This document shows, in pieces, positions 14,915-61,157 of a stretch of 64,000 bases of DNA. Location of the stretch: NCBI GenBank assembly GCA_047637555.1, contig JBLIKX010000001.1:8294-72293 (forward strand), given 5' to 3'. The notes below the pieces were generated by a model that was given only the letters and a program-made list of their open reading frames with translations, was not told the origin of the DNA and made no database searches. Position numbers and translations under genes: made by a program. This stretch comes from Crocinitomicaceae bacterium (GTDB taxonomy: Bacteria > Patescibacteriota > Minisyncoccia > Phycocordibacterales > UBA1006). Within the stretch, counting starts at the first letter, position 1. Each line of letters starts with the position of its first letter.

Positions 14915-15745
14915 TTATTTTCGGTTTAAGTAATCTTGATAATCCATTTCATTTTTTCCTTCTGGAATAATACGCTTAATGGTGAAGGAATTATTGGAAT
15001 ATTCAGCGTCAGTAATTTTCAAACGAACTTTGTTATCAAAAATAAAAGTACCAGGCCATCCATAATAGGCCCTATATTTTCGATCACGAGTGTGATTATT
15101 ATCATGGGTAATATCTCCATCTGCTTTTACAATTTTTCCACAGTATGTTGCTAGGGAATGGTCTTGTTCTATTGGTGTACAATTTCCTAAAATATATTCA
15201 GGTAAAATTTCCGCAAGAACTTTTCCTCCATCATGAGCTAGCATATGAAATAAATCAGGTTTTAAAAGATCTGACTCTAAAGGGAATTGTGACTGAGTAA
15301 TGATAGGACCTTCGTCCATTTTCAAAGTCATTTGCATGATCGTCGAACCAGTTTCATCATCACCATTAAGGATTGCTGACTCGATAGGTGAGGCACCACG
15401 ATATTTAGGGAGTAGTGATGTATGCACATTGAGCACTCCAAGCCTTGGGATGTTGAGTAGTTTTTGAGAAACAATATATCCATACGAGGCAACAATATAT
15501 AAATCATCATCCCTTTTTTCTAATTGTTCTATAATATATTTTGGTTTCTCTGGTTGCCAACATTCAATTCCGTGCTCGTCAGCCCATACCTTAACAGGTG
15601 GGGCTGTCATAATATGTTTCCGTCCAACAGATCGGTCGGGTGCTGTGATTATCAATGAAGGCATATAACCCACACTTTTTAATTCCTCGAGAACTATTAC
15701 TGAAAATTCAGGTGTTCCAAAATAAACAAATTGAGTATCTTTCAT
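14915..15745 (-). CDS. fmt: methionyl-tRNA formyltransferase
   Basis: VYFGTPEF...LNVHTSLLPKYRGASPIESAILNGD formyltransferase core. Confidence 0.9.
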   Translation of the reverse strand: MKDTQFVYFGTPEFSVIVLEELKSVGYMPSLIITAPDRSVGRKHIMTAPPVKVWADEHGIECWQPEKPKYIIEQLEKRDDDLYIVASYGYIVSQKLLNIPRLGVLNVHTSLLPKYRGASPIESAILNGDDETGSTIMQMTLKMDEGPIITQSQFPLESDLLKPDLFHMLAHDGGKVLAEILPEYILGNCTPIEQDHSLATYCGKIVKADGDITHDNNHTRDRKYRAYYGWPGTFIFDNKVRLKITDAEYSNNSFTIKRIIPEGKNEMDYQDYLNRK

Positions 15746-15762: not shown

Positions 15763-16098
15763 AAAAATAATTTCGTCATCTTACAAAAAACTGATATAAA
15801 AAATAAAGGATTTACCTTAATTAAACTACTCATTATTATTGTAATTATAGGTGTATTGGCAACTATCATAATTGGTTCGTCTGGTGATGTTTGTAATGAA
15901 GCTCTTGATTCAAAGGCAAAGACAAGACCCTCACAGACCCAAATTCAGGCTGAGCTATAATCATTTGATACAGGTTCCTATACAGAGCTTTATGATACAG
16001 ATACTCTTAGCTTTATGGTATTTCAAACTTTAGATAATGTTTGGGGCACACAAGATATTTCAAATACTAATGTCAGTGCAGGCGAGGACAATTTATAG
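15763..16098 (+). pseudogene. decayed type IV pilin / pseudopilin gene (no start codon, in-frame TAA and TAG)
   Basis: the frame reads ...KNKGFTLIKLLIIIVIIGVLATIIIG (class III prepilin N-methylation motif) with no ATG/GTG/TTG start after the upstream stop; TAA at 15958 and TAG at 16096 interrupt a continuing pilin-like reading frame. Confidence 0.55.
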
Positions 16099-16207
16099 TT
16101 CTCTGTATCACGAAGCCCTTCTAGTAAATAATACTACAGCAACACAGGAGTCAGCATTGCTTGCTGGACATGCTCATCCTGTTAACAACGATGATAAAAA
16201 TTGTAAT

Positions 16208-16231
16208 TAAAAACACCTCTAGGTGTTTTTA
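16208..16231. terminator. bidirectional rho-independent terminator overlapping the def stop
   Basis: aacacct-ct-aggtgtt hairpin flanked by A and T runs. Confidence 0.7.
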
Positions 16232-16747
16232 ATTTTCATTCAAGACATCATCAATCTCATCTTGGGTCATATCTCGTAATTTACGTGCCTTGTCTACAAA
16301 TAATATTCCATGTAAATGATCTGTTTCATGTTGAAAAATATGAGCTAATAGTTCGTCTGCCGATTCGGTAAATTTATTTCCATATTCATCATAGGCCTCA
16401 ATAGTAGCTTCTTTAGACCGTTCTACATCACCAACTTTCCAACGACAGGATAGACATCCTTCGCGCATCCACTTTTTTTTCTCAGATGTTTCAATGATTA
16501 CAGGGTTAATATATACCAAATGTTCTCCTTGTGGCTCTTCAAATATAAAAGGGGCAACGGTGAAAATTTGATATGATTCACCAATTTGTGGAGCCGCAAT
16601 AGCCACGCCGTCACTCTGAGTGGTGAGTGATTCATGTAAATCTGAAATAATAGATTGAATTTTTTCTGAGGTAATTTTTGTTGGATCGACATACTCAGCT
16701 TTTTGCCGAAGGACCTTTTTCCCCATCTGAATAATATCTCGTTTCAT
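16229..16747 (-). CDS. def: peptide deformylase
   Basis: GVAIAAPQIG, EGCLSCRW, HIFQHETDHLHG metal-binding motifs; track ORF runs to 16783 inside the tandem repeat, likely start MKRDIIQMG at 16747. Confidence 0.9.
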   Translation of the reverse strand: MKRDIIQMGKKVLRQKAEYVDPTKITSEKIQSIISDLHESLTTQSDGVAIAAPQIGESYQIFTVAPFIFEEPQGEHLVYINPVIIETSEKKKWMREGCLSCRWKVGDVERSKEATIEAYDEYGNKFTESADELLAHIFQHETDHLHGILFVDKARKLRDMTQDEIDDVLNEN

Positions 16748-16767
16748 ATCTCTTAGAGTAAAATTAA

Positions 16768-16947
16768 ATGAAGAAAAGAGCAATAGCGACTATTATGAAT
16801 TTATGCTGTGCGAAATGAAGAAAAGAGCAATAGCGACTATTATGAATTTATGCTGTGCGAAATGAAGAAAAGAGCAATAGCGACTATTATGAATTTATGC
16901 TGTGCGAAATGAAGAAAAGAGCAATAGCGACTATTATGAATTTATGC
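16768..16947. repeat. perfect 47-bp direct tandem repeat, 3.8 copies
   Basis: unit atgaagaaaagagcaatagcgactattatgaatttatgctgtgcgaa at 16768, 16815, 16862 and 16909 (last copy 39 nt); 100% identity between copies. Confidence 0.95.
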
Positions 16948-16951
16948 AAAA

Positions 16952-16986
16952 TAAAAAACACTTTAAGCTAGGTTTAAAGTGTTTTT
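16952..16986. terminator. bidirectional terminator at the hisS 3' end
   Basis: aacactttaa-gctaggtt-taaagtgtt inverted repeat with flanking A/T runs. Confidence 0.6.
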
Positions 16987-18269
16987 AGATAATCAGAAAG
17001 TTCAGAGATCTTAATAATTTTTTGTTTCCGTGTGCTCATGTCACGAACAATTACGGTTCCATCCATCGCTTCTTTCTGACCAAAAATTAATGTATACGGA
17101 ATACCTAATGTCTCTGCGGTTCCTAATTGTGCCCCAAGAGTATTCTTTGATAAAGAATGCTTGATTGGATAGTGCTTTTTACGCATTATTTCAATAATAT
17201 CAAAAGCTTTGGCTTTGGCTTCATATCCTAGTTGAATAAAGAAGAATTTTGCTTTTTTCCTTATTTTGGGATTATAGGTTCCTTCTTTTGAAATTTCAAG
17301 AATACGGTCTACTCCAAGTCCAAGCCCTACAGCAGGCACATCTTTGTTGTGTCCCATTGATTTTGCCAGTCCATCATATCGTCCGCCTCCCCCTAGTGCA
17401 ATTGATTGATTGCCATCTTTATCTAATGTGACATATTCAAACACAGTGTGCGTGTAGTAATCTAACCCACGAACCAGAGCATGGTCTATTTCATAGGGAA
17501 TACCTGCAGCCTCTAGGTATTCAAGTACTGACTTAAAATGTTTTTTACTGACGATATTTAAATTATCAATAATAGTTGGAGCTTGCTCGTTAATTTTTTT
17601 AGTATCAGGCTCTTTTGAGTCAAGAACACGGAGTGGATTTGTGTCGAGTCGAGCGAGGTCTTTTTCACTGAGGTATTTTTTATTTTTTCTATAAAAAGCC
17701 TTAAGTATTTTAAGATATTCTTTACGAACCTCAGGATCACCCAAGGTATTTATTTTTACAATAATCTCAGCACCAGATTCTTTTATTATTTGATATCCTG
17801 TTTGTATGGTTATGGCATCTAGTACGGCTCTCTCTGAACCAATGATTTCAAGTCCAAACTGATAAAACTGTCGGTAACGCCCTTTTTGAGGTCTTTCATG
17901 TCTAAAGAATGGACCACCATAGTATAAAAATACTGGTTGTGGTTGGTTACCCATTCCATGTTCAATGTATGATCGCATAATACCTGCTGTGCCTTCTGGT
18001 CGCATTACAAGTTTACTTCCACCTTTAGTTTTCAAGCTATACATTTCTTTCTCTACTATGTCGGTATTATCTCCAACACCTTTAACAAAAATTTCTTCAT
18101 GCTCCAGGATTGGCAGTTCAGTCCCAGAAAATCCATAGTATTCAGCAATCTCTTGTGCTTTTTCATAAAAACCTTGTTTTTGATAGAAGGTATCACCTGA
18201 AAGATCTCGCATACCTTTTGGTGCTTGAAGAAGATCTTTTTTGTTTTTTGTTTTTTTGTTTGGAGTCAT
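16974..18269 (-). CDS. hisS: histidyl-tRNA synthetase
   Basis: class II aaRS motifs (MRDLSGDT, FRHERPQKGRYRQF, GGGRYDGL) and anticodon-binding domain; 431 aa. Confidence 0.95.
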   Translation of the reverse strand: MTPNKKTKNKKDLLQAPKGMRDLSGDTFYQKQGFYEKAQEIAEYYGFSGTELPILEHEEIFVKGVGDNTDIVEKEMYSLKTKGGSKLVMRPEGTAGIMRSYIEHGMGNQPQPVFLYYGGPFFRHERPQKGRYRQFYQFGLEIIGSERAVLDAITIQTGYQIIKESGAEIIVKINTLGDPEVRKEYLKILKAFYRKNKKYLSEKDLARLDTNPLRVLDSKEPDTKKINEQAPTIIDNLNIVSKKHFKSVLEYLEAAGIPYEIDHALVRGLDYYTHTVFEYVTLDKDGNQSIALGGGGRYDGLAKSMGHNKDVPAVGLGLGVDRILEISKEGTYNPKIRKKAKFFFIQLGYEAKAKAFDIIEIMRKKHYPIKHSLSKNTLGAQLGTAETLGIPYTLIFGQKEAMDGTVIVRDMSTRKQKIIKISELSDYLKTL

Positions 18270-18323: not shown

Positions 18324-18908
18324 CTATAGCTTAATTTCTAATTCTGAAGGTTTAACTTCCCCTGTTCTATAACTTATTTCAGTCAAGGGAAAGAGTCGTA
18401 AAAACGTTTTCCCGACAATTAAGTTTCTATCTAATACACCCCATGATCGTGAATCTGAGCTTTTTTGACGATTATCTCCTAGTACAAAATATTCATCCTT
18501 TTCAAGTTCCCAACTACCATAACTTGAAAAATCCCCATTAAGATAGTTCTCTTTTAGTTGGATTACACTATCATCAGCTTGGGTTATTGTTATTTTACTA
18601 CCATTAATGGCTATATTTTCTCCTGGCAAACCAATTACTCGTTTTATAAGAAATCGTGTATGTTCGGTTGGATAGCGAAACACCACAACATCACCCCGCT
18701 CAGGTTCTGTTGTTCTATAGGAAATTTCATCAATAATGAGATAGTCTCCATTTTCTAAGGTAGGGAACATCGACTCACCATTTACAATAAATGGTTGAGC
18801 AATAAATACGCGGATAGGAATGACCACCGCAAGGACAATAAGAATAAATCTAATGAGCTCTAATATTTCGGATTTAAGTGATTTTTTAGGAGTAGATTCT
18901 GAATTCAT
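18324..18908 (-). CDS. lepB: signal peptidase I
   Basis: GESMFPTL (Ser box), KRVIGLPGE (Lys box), VLGDNRQKSSDSR. Confidence 0.9.
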   Translation of the reverse strand: MNSESTPKKSLKSEILELIRFILIVLAVVIPIRVFIAQPFIVNGESMFPTLENGDYLIIDEISYRTTEPERGDVVVFRYPTEHTRFLIKRVIGLPGENIAINGSKITITQADDSVIQLKENYLNGDFSSYGSWELEKDEYFVLGDNRQKSSDSRSWGVLDRNLIVGKTFLRLFPLTEISYRTGEVKPSELEIKL

Positions 18909-44398: not shown

Positions 44399-44405
44399 TT
44401 AGGTA

Positions 44406-44687
44406 TTATAAAAAACGAAACTGCTCACCTAAATTTTCTTTTAAAATATTCATGATCACTTCTGGCGAGACGTCATCATATATCCTAAACTGCTGTTTAT
44501 ACATTTTCCCAGTTACTGTTAGTAAATGACATCCAGATTCTGAGCTGTGTTTAACTGTAGTTCTATGGTCTCGTCTACCTTTAATAGAAATGATAATTCC
44601 ATAGCTGGTATTAATAATCCTATGTTTTTTAAGAAGTTTATTGATAATTCTGACTGAGTTTATTGCGGTTGTTTTGGAGCCTCTCAT
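44406..44687 (-). CDS. hypothetical basic protein (93 aa)
   Basis: no confident motif; faint OB-fold/IF-1-like GKMYKQQFRIY stretch. Confidence 0.3.
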   Translation of the reverse strand: MRGSKTTAINSVRIINKLLKKHRIINTSYGIIISIKGRRDHRTTVKHSSESGCHLLTVTGKMYKQQFRIYDDVSPEVIMNILKENLGEQFRFL

Positions 44688-45135
44688 AATTATTGTTTTA
44701 GGAATTTTCTCTGGTTATCCAGAAAAATTTATTGAAATAAATGAGCGCTAGTGAATATTATTTACGGTATACTCTTGGTTATAGAACTGTACCTCGAGTG
44801 TATTTCGATTTTTACAGTCACTTTCGCTTTCTTAAAAATTATGCAATTCATAATAGTCGCTGAACTCCTTTATTCATCTAACTATAGCACGTTGACACAT
44901 TTTATGACTTTGTTAATGTGGTCGGAGATTAAAAGTAGTCACTAATTAAATAATTCAAAAATCATTTTTAAATGCACTTAAATTCAGTACGACCATCAAG
45001 CATTTTTCCAAGAGTTAACTATTTTAATAAACCTCGAAAAAAGTAAATATTTCTTCATAAAACAACAATACTTCTATTTTTTTTTGAGGTATTTTTTATT
45101 TCCTTATCATGCTAAATCTGCCATTATTTACAAAT

Positions 45136-45640
45136 ATGAATACATCAAAAGAAGTTACTCTTATCGAATTTTTATTTGTTATCTCAATTATTGGATTATT
45201 ATCCACCATTATTGTAGGCAGCTTGTGCGATGATCGAGCTTGAGATATTAAACAACTTGGAAGTATTAGAACAATTCAAATGGCATTAGAAATTTATAAT
45301 TTAGATAATGGTTTTTATCCCCCACATGCTGTTTAACTTGCGTTCAACCTAATTCATCTAAGGGTGCTTAGGTATAAAGTCCATATACTTCTTGGGAAAA
45401 TCTAAGTTTTGGACTAGGAATCACATTAGTTGTTGATATTATAAATTATGAAGGTTTGAGTACCACAATTGGAGATAGACTATATAATTATGATTATTTC
45501 AAATCTGTTCCTAGTTACCCAAAAGGTTCAGGATATTTTATTAAAGTTAAACTAAAATCAGATTTTTCCTGCAACTACTTTAGATCCTGAGGTTAAACCT
45601 TGTGATACGGGTACTAAATATTATTAGGGTTCTGGTATTA
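45136..45640 (+). pseudogene. decayed type IV pilin / GspG-like pseudopilin gene (in-frame TGA, then frame breaks)
   Basis: MNTSKEVTLIEFLFVISIIGLLSTIIVGSLCDDRA-TGA-DIKQLGSIRTIQMALEIYNLDNGFYPPHAV-TAA in one frame (45136-45336); pilin-like pieces such as NYDYFKSVPSYPKGSGYFIKVKL continue to ~45640 in other frames. Confidence 0.5.
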
Positions 45641-45713
45641 CCATATGAGCATCTCCTCTTTTACAAGTTCTCGTAGGGCTTTTTTGTTTTAATAAATTCG
45701 CTATAGTGTTTGT

Positions 45714-47744: not shown

Positions 47745-48240
47745 AAAACCAGTTATTAAGGTTTTTTATTTTAAATTCATATGAAATAAAAACATATTCT
47801 TTTTCGATGACACTGTATATTCCTAAAATACTAAAAAATATAATGATTCTTCATAACTACAAGTATCAAGTATTTTATAATTCTTATCTCTATACTAGGA
47901 GCAAAAAAAGTTCTTAGCTCTGGAACATTAAGACTCTTCACTATTAATATAAATGAAATTGTTGTTGTTCTTTGAACATAAATACAAAAAAATTCTAGAG
48001 CAAGAAAAATTTTTCAAACGGTTTTGGAATAAAAAAATCTTGTTTATATCTTTTTTCTTCTCCATACATCTATTTTTTTTATTTTAACTATTTTGAATTA
48101 CTGTAGTAAATGAATAAACGAGTGCAACGATTATAGTATTTTTTTTACTGAATTTTCTAGATCCTTATTGAAAATACCTAGAACATTTTTAGGTAGACTT
48201 TCCATATAAAACTTTCTGACTATAATGAAAGAATACTATT

Positions 48241-59197: not shown

Positions 59198-59336
59198 AAA
59201 AAAACTTAACAGAAATCTCGTATTTATTTTTGTTGCAGAAATTAAATAGATAAAAAGAGAAGTGCTACTATTGTGGATCTATGTAATAAATATAAATCGA
59301 CTTTTTTAATTTGTTTTTTGCCTTCTTTCATTTAGA

Positions 59337-61157
59337 ATGATAGATATGACATCACAGGAAATACGAAAACGATTCTTAGCGTTCTTTGAAAAACGCGGAC
59401 ATGCTATCTTGCCTTCAGCATCATTAATTACTACTGATGATCCAAAGGCCACAAATGCAACATTATTCAATACTGCGGGTATGCAACCCTTGATTCCTTT
59501 TTTAATGGGACAAAAACATGATACTGGAAAGCGTCTCGCAAGTTCACAAAAATGTGTGCGAACAGGTGACCTGGAAGAAGTCGGTGATAATACTCACGTG
59601 ACATTCTTTGAGATGCTTGGGAACTGGTCTCTTGGTGATTATTTTAAAAAGGAGGCTATCTCTTGGTCATGGGAATTCCTGACTGATACTGATGAAGGTC
59701 TTGGTCTTGATCCAGAGCGTTTATATGTAACAGTATTTATTGGAAATGATATGGTTCCACGTGATAATGAGGCTGTAGAAATTTGGAAACAGTTTATTCC
59801 TGAAAATCGAATTTATTACCGAGACTCAAAAGACAACTGGTGGACCGCAGGACCTAATTCTCCAGCAGGACCATCAACTGAAATATTTTATGACCTTACC
59901 GGAGAACTTGGTGATCTATCTGATACAGAATTTGAAAAAGCTGATAAAGATCAACAGGTCGTGGAGATTTGGAACGATGTATTTATGGTATATAAACAAG
60001 AAAGAGGTGAGGTAACAGGTAAACTCTCACAGAGAAATGTGGATACGGGTGCAGGGTTGGAGCGTTTAACTGCAGTTACGCAAGGAAAAAATAATATTTT
60101 TGATACTGATTTATTTTTACCACTACTAAATATCATAAAGGAAAATGCAGAAAAATATGAACAAAAGCATGCCCGAATTTTAGCTGATCATATTAAGACA
60201 TCTGTATTTCTCATTAATGATGGTGTTATTATTTCAAATACAGGGCGAGGGTATGTACTACGACGTATATTAAGGCGGGCTTATTCATCACTCGAAGCAA
60301 TGGAATGTTCTGAAAAAATTATTCCAGAACTTATTCATACTGTTGTTAATATGTATAAAGATTTATATTTTAAAAATGTTGATGAAAAGAAGATAGCAAT
60401 TAAAATAAAGGTAGTTGCAACAGAAATGGATAAGGTTATTAATATCATCAAGCGTGGAGTAAAAATATTTAAGAAAATAAAAGAAAATCCACATACCTTG
60501 ATTACAGGAAAATTTTTAATGGATCTAGAGCAAACCCAAGGTCTGCCATTATCTATGTCAAAAAAATTGGCCAAAAAATTCGGTATTGAAATTTCAGATG
60601 ACTCATTAGAGGAATGTAAAAAAATAAGAGTTGAACATCAGGAACTATCTCGAACGGGAGCAGATCAAAAATTTAAAGGAGGTTTATCTCAGGACACACC
60701 AAAAATTAGAGCACTTCATACCGCTACGCACTTGATGCTTGCTGGTCTTCGTAAGGAACTCGGAAATGACGTTCATCAAAAAGGTTCAAATATTACCGAA
60801 GAGAGAACACGTTTTGATTTTACGCATGGAGAAAAAGTTTCTCGAGAGATATTAAATAAGGTGGAATTATATGTAAGGGATGCAATTACTACAAATGCGA
60901 AAATGGGCGTTCAGTTAATGGAAAAGGAAAAGGCAAAGAATTCTGATGTTGTTGGTTCATTTTGGGAAAAATATCCAGATATCGTAAAGGTATGGACTAT
61001 TATAGATAAAGACCAAAATATTTACTCAAAGGAATTGTGCGGAGGACCACATGTGGAAGATCTATCACAGATTGCAGAATTTGGGGTATTTAAAATAAAA
61101 AAAGAGGAATCGTCATCCGCAGGCGTTCGTCGTATCAAAGCCATTCTGGAAAAATAA
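59337..61157 (+). CDS. alaS: alanyl-tRNA synthetase, short form (catalytic + editing domains, no C-Ala domain)
   Basis: N-terminal FFEKRGH...NTAGMQPL...FFEMLGNWSLGDYFK class II core; editing HTATHLM and CGGPHV motifs; only 606 aa. Confidence 0.9.
   Translation: MIDMTSQEIRKRFLAFFEKRGHAILPSASLITTDDPKATNATLFNTAGMQPLIPFLMGQKHDTGKRLASSQKCVRTGDLEEVGDNTHVTFFEMLGNWSLGDYFKKEAISWSWEFLTDTDEGLGLDPERLYVTVFIGNDMVPRDNEAVEIWKQFIPENRIYYRDSKDNWWTAGPNSPAGPSTEIFYDLTGELGDLSDTEFEKADKDQQVVEIWNDVFMVYKQERGEVTGKLSQRNVDTGAGLERLTAVTQGKNNIFDTDLFLPLLNIIKENAEKYEQKHARILADHIKTSVFLINDGVIISNTGRGYVLRRILRRAYSSLEAMECSEKIIPELIHTVVNMYKDLYFKNVDEKKIAIKIKVVATEMDKVINIIKRGVKIFKKIKENPHTLITGKFLMDLEQTQGLPLSMSKKLAKKFGIEISDDSLEECKKIRVEHQELSRTGADQKFKGGLSQDTPKIRALHTATHLMLAGLRKELGNDVHQKGSNITEERTRFDFTHGEKVSREILNKVELYVRDAITTNAKMGVQLMEKEKAKNSDVVGSFWEKYPDIVKVWTIIDKDQNIYSKELCGGPHVEDLSQIAEFGVFKIKKEESSSAGVRRIKAILEK

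Follow-up and report, generated by a model that had tools for sequence, protein, structure and literature searches.

A perfect 47-bp tandem array between hisS and def of a Parcubacterium, probably amplified from one hairpin of a structured, non-coding dispersed element

The pneumococcal BOX element is built of boxA, boxB and boxC parts with a variable number of tandem boxB modules, and the REP/REPIN sequences of proteobacteria are mobilised by RAYT transposases. Here we describe an intergenic array to be set beside these systems, found in a 64-kb stretch of DNA (hereafter the window, meaning the whole stretch analysed) from a low-GC Patescibacterium (Parcubacteria/Paceibacteria). The array is a perfect 47-bp tandem repeat between hisS, encoding histidyl-tRNA synthetase, and def, encoding peptide deformylase, and it probably arose when one module of a dispersed non-coding element with conserved structure was recently amplified in tandem at this locus. 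The full element is approximately 83 nt long and comprises two abutting hairpins, P3 (about 39 nt, near-invariant in sequence) and then P1/P2, with 0–1 nt between them. Throughout, the array is read on the + strand, and the flanking genes hisS and def lie on the − strand.

The element has no sequence relationship to BOX, REP/REPIN or MIRU. The likeness to BOX is that of a small modular intergenic repeat with a predicted fold, present in either orientation, of which one internal module of ~45 bp is tandemly multiplied in a copy number that varies between loci or strains. The differences are the host phylum, here Patescibacteria, the GA/GA internal loop and the near-invariance of the module across genera; furthermore, multiplication of a perfect module is seen here at one locus only, whereas the clusters of other genomes consist of diverged full elements. 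With REP/REPIN the element has in common that it is a structured extragenic repeat of tens of nucleotides, occurring in many copies and both orientations, in 3' untranslated regions (UTRs) and operon spacers, and frequently only a few nucleotides from stop codons. It lacks their GTAG-type head and inverted doublet, and no RAYT was identified by Pfam in the eight window open reading frames (ORFs) scanned, while its conservation at orthologous sites across species, together with compensatory changes, suggests a function of the sites beyond selfish spread. The MIRU repeats of Mycobacterium are likewise tandem intergenic repeats of 40–100 bp in operon spacers, with variable copy number and with small ORFs overlapping at start and stop, but MIRU ORFs follow the direction of the flanking genes, whereas here the ORF runs on the opposite strand and is not conserved, and each unit is one hairpin of an element that has two.

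Tandem Repeats Finder (TRF) gives the array a period of 47 with 3.9 copies, 100% matches, 0 indels and a score of 364; the runner-up in the 64 kb scores 66, so the hisS-def array is the sole strong one in the window. An exact-match search places the 39-nt core of the unit at 16768, 16815, 16862 and 16909, and finds no other occurrence in the window at up to 3 mismatches, with 0 expected in shuffles. The initial annotation of this locus is thereby borne out in its coordinates, in the geometry of the repeat and in its reading of each unit as MKKRAIATIMNLCCAK with stop and start overlapping as ATGA. It was also right that the array lies upstream of def, that it is not a coding-repeat domain and that the perfect identity of the units speaks for a very recent expansion; the first unit begins 20 nt from the ATG of def. 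With head-to-tail units of more than 10 bp and high identity, the array has the layout of a minisatellite-like variable-number tandem repeat (VNTR). Between successive P3 modules stands an 8-nt linker, UGCUGUGC (16804–16811 ahead of module 2), which is similar to the 5' strand of P1 in full elements and, together with the GAAAU that follows it, recalls the UGUCC-GAAU start of P1/P2. No P1/P2 hairpin is present downstream of the last unit.

Relatives of the unit are found well beyond the array. In the window, blastn returns the exact 17-mer AGCGACTATTATGAATT (17/17) at 44845–44861, where the similarity extends past an indel of 1 nt, by which the mini-ORF frame is broken. A metagenome scan with the same 17-mer gave 102 single hits, roughly the number due to chance, of which ~75 are chance matches and 25 have far longer common sequence; it gave no further tandem array. 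Proteins encoded on the element-bearing contigs fall into clusters named Kaiserbacteria or Parcubacteria. A “tail” profile made from the metagenome copies (nhmmer) matches every array unit at E 1.6e-7, 44845–44877 at E 9.5e-9 and 48109–48133 at E 1.6e-3, which makes the array unit a family member and not a gene fragment. The suggestion of a duplicated 5' gene fragment is not supported, the unit being homologous to a non-coding structured element and to no gene start. More exactly, the unit is a copy of a box of ~40 nt that is near-invariant across diverse Parcubacterial metagenome contigs, most copies on which were picked via the exact 17-mer inside P3 (3' arm).

Four element loci are recognised in the window by the profile and by covariance model (CM) R1, namely the array and three diverged copies near 44.8, 48.1 and 59.2 kb (Table 1). 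The last of these has AAATTAAAT...AAAAGAG...ACTATT...TATG in common with the array unit and its left flank, and the gene downstream of it carries Pfam tRNA-synt_2c (alaS) with the promoter TAGAAT-N7-ATG at 59346. Whether the unit might be a common dispersed repeat had been raised in the initial annotation; the exact 47-mer is not dispersed, and the unit does belong to a dispersed family with at least three diverged copies in the window. At gathering thresholds, Rfam 15 recognises only tRNA and 16S in the window and 10 element-bearing loci, and at E up to 10 it returns only noise of 10–24 bits against thresholds of 35–100. Among viral contigs and phage records, the 17-mer had one chance match, which the model scores at 15.8 bits, and a Bacillus phage matched over 35 nt at E 0.7. 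Full-text literature searches by taxon and feature keyword returned no account of the element in Patescibacteria/Parcubacteria, although one under another name would escape them, and the family appears to be undescribed so far.

The P3 consensus, in the sense of the array + strand, is 5'-UAAAU[GA]AUAA-ACG-AGCG-UAG-CG(A)CU-A-UUAU[GA]AUUUA-3', in which an outer helix of 5 bp and an inner helix of 4 bp flank a symmetric GA/GA internal loop, with a small apical stem at the tip. P1/P2 has 5 + 9–10 bp, a 3' side that bulges by two nucleotides (CU/UC) and a UUCCUAG-like loop; its sequence is variable and its pairing strictly conserved. In alignment A4 of 15 independent copies, 97.5% of the cells pair and 13/27 pairs are changed on both sides, with 0/500 shuffles as good and slid controls at 32–41% (32–43% over both alignments). 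In alignment A5 of 23 distinct copies, non-seed copies included, 96.4% of the cells pair and 19/27 pairs with 110 cells are double-changed, this being a model-made alignment that is fitted to the model. Some copies are mutually related. The covariation signal comes mainly from P1/P2. In P3, the outer helix occurs as UAAAU/AUUUA, GAAAU/AUUUC, AGAAAU/AUUUCU, UUAAU/AUUAA and AAAAU/AUUUU, and the inner helix shows compensations outside the 17-mer selection in the copies L088a (AU to GC), L098b (U to G with A to C) and L092b (U to C with A to G), the apical stem of L092b being swapped for UGCC/GGCA with the GA/GA loop kept. At L092:713–794 (−), an element with a replaced apical P3 stem lies between the 16S rRNA and a tRNA gene, antisense to both.

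Two features bear on the nature of the molecule. Over the paired columns, G.U exceeds A.C by 26 to 4, and the internal loop has GA on both arms in every copy, which makes it non-palindromic. Taken together these sequence features point to an element that acts as a single-stranded molecule, with the + strand at the array as its sense, rather than as a double-stranded palindrome. P3 folds with −7.5 to −13.7 kcal/mol in three variants.

All copies of the element are intergenic, in spacers, 3' UTRs and 5' regions of housekeeping genes, and their neighbours are varied (rplK, tpiA, recA, thrS, rplJ-rplL, secE, gyrA, dnaN, uvrA, alaS), with about 10 sense and 4 antisense contexts. In the commonest sense layout a gene ends in or beside the 5' arm of P3, which supplies UGA, UAA and UAG in three frames, and the next gene starts 6–60 nt past P1/P2; this is seen between an upstream gene and recA, at rplJ-rplL, thrS (three genomes), secE and a YqeY-like gene, and within the window at uvrB-uvrA and between a gene and alaS. 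After gyrA and after rplB the element lies between stop codon and terminator. In the reverse orientation, at four independent loci, an opposite-strand ATG is placed 1–4 nt from P3 (rplK, tpiA and a small membrane protein) or 20 nt from it (def), and the small membrane protein is conserved together with the element in five related genomes. Elements can be present or absent among relatives, as contig L079 has one before rplK and the Kaiserbacteria contig L177, with the same L11 protein, is without it. Upstream of rplK, L079:9700–9900 and L177:9690–10000 have a TTGCAA-N17-TACGAT promoter and a conserved leader in common, and L079 carries ~130 nt extra, including the element, inserted right before the rplK ATG. 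Second or third copies of the element occur in L092, L098 and L088, and at L088:1976–2300 and L134:2017–2260 clusters of two or three diverged elements are packed within 100–300 nt, some of them retaining only the 3' half of P3. The family seems prone to multiply locally, and we estimate that the Parcubacteria which carry it, a patchy subset, have tens of copies in each genome. Multiple related copies within a genome, in non-coding spacers, both orientations, presence and absence among relatives and a conserved folding potential (27 pairs) are typical of REP/BOX-like repeats, and each of these is seen here. The GC skew of the loci gives no replication-strand bias of the element. The invariance of P3 and the compensatory evolution of P1/P2 at orthologous sites suggest that the copies are also put to use.

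The hisS-def spacer of related genomes indicates how the array came to its place. HisS has a best match of 62% identity when one genome per GTDB species is searched, the close matches all being Patescibacteria (Nomurabacteria, Paceibacteria, Parcubacteria), and metagenome matches reach 79–83% identity and represent sister species. In four sister species the spacer measures 36–63 nt and holds a terminator hairpin over the hisS stop and a leaderless-type promoter of the frame TTGCAT/TTGGTA/TAGACC, 16–17 nt, TACACT/TAAACT, 6 nt, ATG; in more distant relatives it is ~2–58 nt, with an inserted gene in one. The array unit is absent from 60 GTDB Paceibacteria hisS loci and from the four sister species, and no element copy occurs in 520 kb from 62 other Paceibacteria loci. 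Since the spacers of relatives are short and free of the unit, the array was inserted and expanded specifically in this lineage, in the space that separates the def −10 from the ancestral terminator, and the comparison with related genomes that the initial annotation had called for supports a lineage-specific repeat. The hisS terminator hairpin overlaps the hisS stop (16974–16976) and is taken to be ancestral because an orthologous hairpin is present in the sister species; its sequence suggests that it could terminate in both directions. When the entire spacer is folded on both strands, this hairpin alone stands out (z ~ −0.5).

The def start at ATG 16747 agrees with the gene calls of other contigs, with Pfam and with the sister species, and the putative promoter before it would have leaderless-type spacing. 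A Shine-Dalgarno-like site is found at 1/34 window ORFs of at least 200 aa, and TAnnnT stands 6–7 nt ahead of the ATG in many genes (fmt TATACT-N6, uvrB TATAGT-N6, alaS TAGAAT-N7). Because Shine-Dalgarno sites are so rare and TAnnnT so placed, the sequence suggests that most genes of this Parcubacterium are expressed as leaderless mRNAs. ORF starts with this layout include fmt 15745, uvrB 45714 and alaS 59346, and also 4999, 9206 and 20644. At L092:1–520, the 16S rRNA of an element-bearing Parcubacterium ends in ...GGAUUAAUUCCAAU and not in ...GGAUCACCUCCUUU, so the canonical anti-Shine-Dalgarno CCUCC is missing there.

The array is also found outside the window. The HisS and Def proteins recur unchanged on 10 further contigs (JGI, Logan), which are 99.9–100% identical to the window over 1.5–10 kb, and seven independently assembled metagenome contigs contain the array, so it is not the artefact of one assembly. 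Three k=31 Logan contigs end 30 nt into the first unit, where a true repeat would be expected to break them. The core is present in 3 copies in L001, L003 and L004, in 4 copies in L002/L009, L010 and the window, and in 4 copies with the contig end within a fifth (at least 5) in L006. These near-identical contigs thus differ in copy number (3, 4, at least 5), but short-read assemblers can miscount a 47-nt loop, and as the arrays of 135–230 nt are at or above short-read length, the differences are suggestive rather than proven; they are either real variation or an assembler artefact. The hot spot for replication slippage proposed in the initial annotation is to that extent favoured by the counts in assemblies of at least 99.9% identity and left in doubt by the possible artefact.

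We consider that the array probably formed when a P3-only copy was placed between the ancestral hisS terminator and the def −10, after which a 47-nt segment, P3 with the 8-nt linker as an apparent remnant of the P1 5' strand, would have been multiplied via slipped-strand mispairing or unequal recombination. The perfect identity of the units and the probable differences in copy number lead us to infer that the amplification is recent. The 16-codon mini-ORFs would then be a by-product of the P3 sequence, and the proximal unit would provide the −35-like TTGCTC of def, with the further units serving as upstream DNA only. Because the def −10 is in register with the proximal unit alone, def should be little affected by the number of units, an effect that from the sequence is probably small and nearly neutral. 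As for the family as a whole, there is about an even chance that it is a REP/BOX-like repeat whose transcript, made together with its neighbours or in antisense, would fold and serve as a recognition site for a conserved protein; with the sense strand opposite to hisS and def, P3 RNA would be made at this locus only via antisense or divergent transcription.

It is important to consider the observations that weigh against this account. An intrinsic terminator abuts the 5' end of P3 at four loci, which makes read-through transcription of P3 doubtful there. Neither a mobilising enzyme, RAYT and transposases included, nor a binding protein was identified in the Pfam scans of eight window ORFs, and transposases were sought in those only. 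P3 is marginal as a fold, at −2.5 kcal/mol and z ~0 for the consensus and −0.8 to −1.8 kcal/mol for the window units, and the whole array folds no better than shuffles. The selection by the 17-mer means that variation on that side of P3 is censored, so that the P3 covariation rests on few non-selected copies, and the structure was derived from the same sequences that were used to test it, the fit of A5 to the model adding to this. A palindromic DNA site would likewise yield complementary changes, with only the G.U bias and the GA/GA loop opposing it. Finally, the copy-number differences, in arrays no shorter than a read, may be the work of the assemblers.

The alternatives that keep the + strand sense of P3 at their centre see an RNA in the array itself. 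In the broader form, to which we assign a rather low probability, the two-hairpin element is an undescribed functional RNA class of Parcubacteria, bacteria that seem to do without Shine-Dalgarno sites and to use leaderless mRNAs. It would be bound by a conserved protein and mark, for example, processing or stability sites, which would be located between cistrons, at 3' ends or in antisense transcripts, and the array would be a multiplied + strand RNA with four binding hairpins that titrates the protein by its copy number. A more specific and unlikely version proposes a multi-hairpin small RNA of ~225 nt, running on the + strand from TAGAGT (16754–16759) to the hairpin at 16954–16986, whose four P3 hairpins would sequester, in the manner of a decoy or sponge, the protein that otherwise binds single P3 sites, its capacity depending on the number of copies. 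The layout is suggestive: P3 has its sense on this strand, TAGAGT lies 7 nt ahead of the array and over the def −10 of the other strand, a hairpin with U5 directly follows the last unit, and “antisense” elements are under purifying selection in the L092 group, at sites orthologous among its five related genomes. TAGAGT overlaps the def −10 TACTCT with a 1-nt offset, and overlapping −10 boxes of opposite strands in a symmetric layout are an arrangement described for bidirectional promoters; by its position it could start a transcript at the first array base. TAGAGT has no −35, however, and the consensus scan for promoters and terminators over 16100–17100 found nothing within the array; the predicted start would truncate the first P3, and the units of the window, which have two additional mismatches, form weak folds (in module 1, the mismatches to the family consensus are G16773.A16795 and A16782.C16787, and P3, although the minimum-energy fold, reaches only −1.8 kcal/mol). 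The resemblance to CsrB/RsmZ, RNAs with several protein-binding hairpins, is one of design only and applies to this proposal alone; the element has neither a GGA-loop motif on its sense strand nor a link to CsrA. P3 may alternatively be seen as double-stranded DNA, either as a promoter ATGAAT-N16-TATTAT in the sense direction or as a palindromic protein site, the array being four tandem promoters firing into the hisS terminator. ATGAAT-N16/17-TATTAT is indeed present in all copies (TATAGT in the 48.1-kb copy), and where a terminator abuts P3 the downstream thrS and secE need a promoter, for which the best candidate is in P3. We hold this improbable, as G.U prevails over A.C, the invariant GA/GA is non-palindromic and L092b replaces the spacer or apical part with a different stem, and, for the promoter version, uvrA, alaS and the L080 gene have their own −10 past P1/P2 and there is no + strand gene to drive at the array.

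A role of the array for its − strand neighbours was suggested by the initial annotation, among other options, in the form of a contingency locus modulating def, and the more general proposal is a def-fmt regulatory repeat, whose units would be tandem weak promoters, UP-like elements or protein sites tuning def by their number. The array does lie directly upstream of the def core promoter, to which the proximal unit supplies the −35-like hexamer, and assemblies do differ in copy number. Internal units, on the other hand, have no TAnnnT 16–18 nt from TTGCTC and the consensus scan is blank in the array, the strand conserved by the family is the opposite one, and 47 bp correspond to 4.5 helical turns, which puts successive units on opposite faces of the helix, so that we regard such a repeat as quite improbable. 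The contingency reading in particular looks unlikely from the sequence, because a single unit, the one next to def, is in register with its −10 and the core promoter does not change with copy number. The hallmark of phase variation, a copy number that shifts promoter spacing or reading frame, is lacking at this locus: the array is upstream of the −35, TTGCTC-N17-TACTCT is kept and the def ORF is untouched. Translation of the overlapping mini-ORFs MKKRAIATIMNLCCAK with re-initiation at ATGA, also proposed initially, is very improbable. The frames are present in the sequence, yet no homologue keeps them, 1-nt indels being common and stops falling after 5 codons in most and at 5–9 codons overall (MNKRA*, MNKGA*, MNKGVQRLL*, MNKRVQRL*); neither the frame nor the length that a small protein or leader peptide would conserve is retained in the homologues. 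Conservation among the homologous copies is uniform at the nucleotide level and not three-periodic, tracking base pairing rather than codons, and the indels and early stops mark the family as non-coding.

The arrays of type III toxin-antitoxin systems such as ToxI and AntiQ are perfect tandem repeats of a few tens of nucleotides followed by a terminator hairpin, a layout that the present array recalls. A type III antitoxin array, or a guide array of CRISPR or TIGR type, is nevertheless extremely unlikely here. There is no + strand gene past the terminator, hisS converging on it, and on the − strand the order is terminator, repeats, def, so that the repeat-terminator-toxin order of ToxIN/AbiQ/CptIN is absent and gene context rules these systems out. 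TIGR arrays have been found in parasitic bacteria, with units of ~36 nt, variable spacers and an adjacent Tas (Nop-domain) gene (PMC12045711). In the window the units are identical throughout and the adjacent genes are lepB, hisS, def and fmt, which rules out TIGR and CRISPR, and the match to Rfam CRISPR-DR34, at 15 bits, falls short of the gathering score of 35. The tail is no more complementary to the 16S 3' fragment of an element-bearing genome than shuffles are. On inspection by eye, the defining features of a dif/Xer site, iterons, an rrn boxA/boxB antiterminator, a T-box and an r-protein operator mimic are lacking; a K-turn is rejected for want of a 3-nt bulge, and CsrA sites since the GGA would fall on the non-sense strand.

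Table 1. Features of the hisS-def locus and of the other element copies in the window.
Feature	Coordinates	Strand	Evidence and remarks
Tandem array	16766..16947	+ (element sense; opposite to hisS, def)	TRF, exact-match search, CM R1 35.8, 28.2, 21.7 bits
P3 module 1	16765..16803	+	Family-model alignment; UAAAU[GA]AGAA...UUAU[GA]AUUUA, apical AGCA/CG(A)CU stem
P3 module 2	16812..16850	+	Sequence, CM R1
P3 module 3	16859..16897	+	Sequence, CM R1
P3 module 4 (last)	16906..16944	+	Sequence, CM R1; followed by UGCAAAAU and hairpin 16954-16986
Putative def promoter	16755..16783	-	-35-like TTGCTC 16783-16778 (in module 1), 17 nt, -10 TACTCT 16760-16755, 7 nt, ATG 16747
def, peptide deformylase, 172 aa	16229..16747	-	Pfam PF01327 E 3e-44; gene calls on other contigs
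hisS intrinsic-terminator hairpin	16954..16986	-	Fold and sister-species spacers; 13-bp A/U-rich stem, loop ACCUAGC, then UAUUUU
hisS, histidyl-tRNA synthetase, 431 aa	16974..18269	-	Gene calls, protein matches
P3-only copy	44846..44877	-	Exact 17-mer AGCGACUAUUAUGAAUU in common with array unit; nhmmer E 9.5e-9; CM 27.7 bits
Diverged full copy (P3 + P1/P2)	48105..48186	+	CM R1 30.7 bits, E 1.8e-5, full length; nhmmer E 1.6e-3; uvrB-uvrA spacer, 55 nt before uvrA ATG
Strongly diverged probable copy (weak)	59245..59322	+	CM 18.5 bits, E 0.025; just upstream of alaS promoter

The genes around the array follow one another on the − strand in the order lepB (18324–18908), hisS, array, def, fmt (14915–15745). 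The def-fmt spacer measures 483 nt in the window and ~30–45 nt in sister species, or is occupied by a DoxX gene in L070; no similarity to a DoxX remnant was found in the long spacer. Within it, at 15796–15960 (+), runs an open frame IKNKGFTLIKLLIIIVIIGVLATIIIGSSG... with a type IV pilin-like N-terminal motif and with no ATG, GTG or TTG start past the preceding stop, which may be a decayed or unusually initiated pilin-like gene. The P3-only copy lies in a region of ~1.3 kb (44400–45710) that is without a convincing gene and is adjoined by ORFs of 93 aa and 191 aa without Pfam match.

By itself the array looks like any other variable tandem repeat, the copy number of which is a possible strain-typing marker, and its value is that it leads to an element strongly supported by sequence comparison; the family is the more interesting result. 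To our knowledge, the gene expression signals of Parcubacteria, uncultured and ultra-small bacteria, are almost unknown. If the family is a selfish REP/BOX-like repeat, it adds one such repeat in Parcubacteria, and if it binds a protein as an RNA or serves to mark processing, it would offer a handle on operon expression in these genomes.

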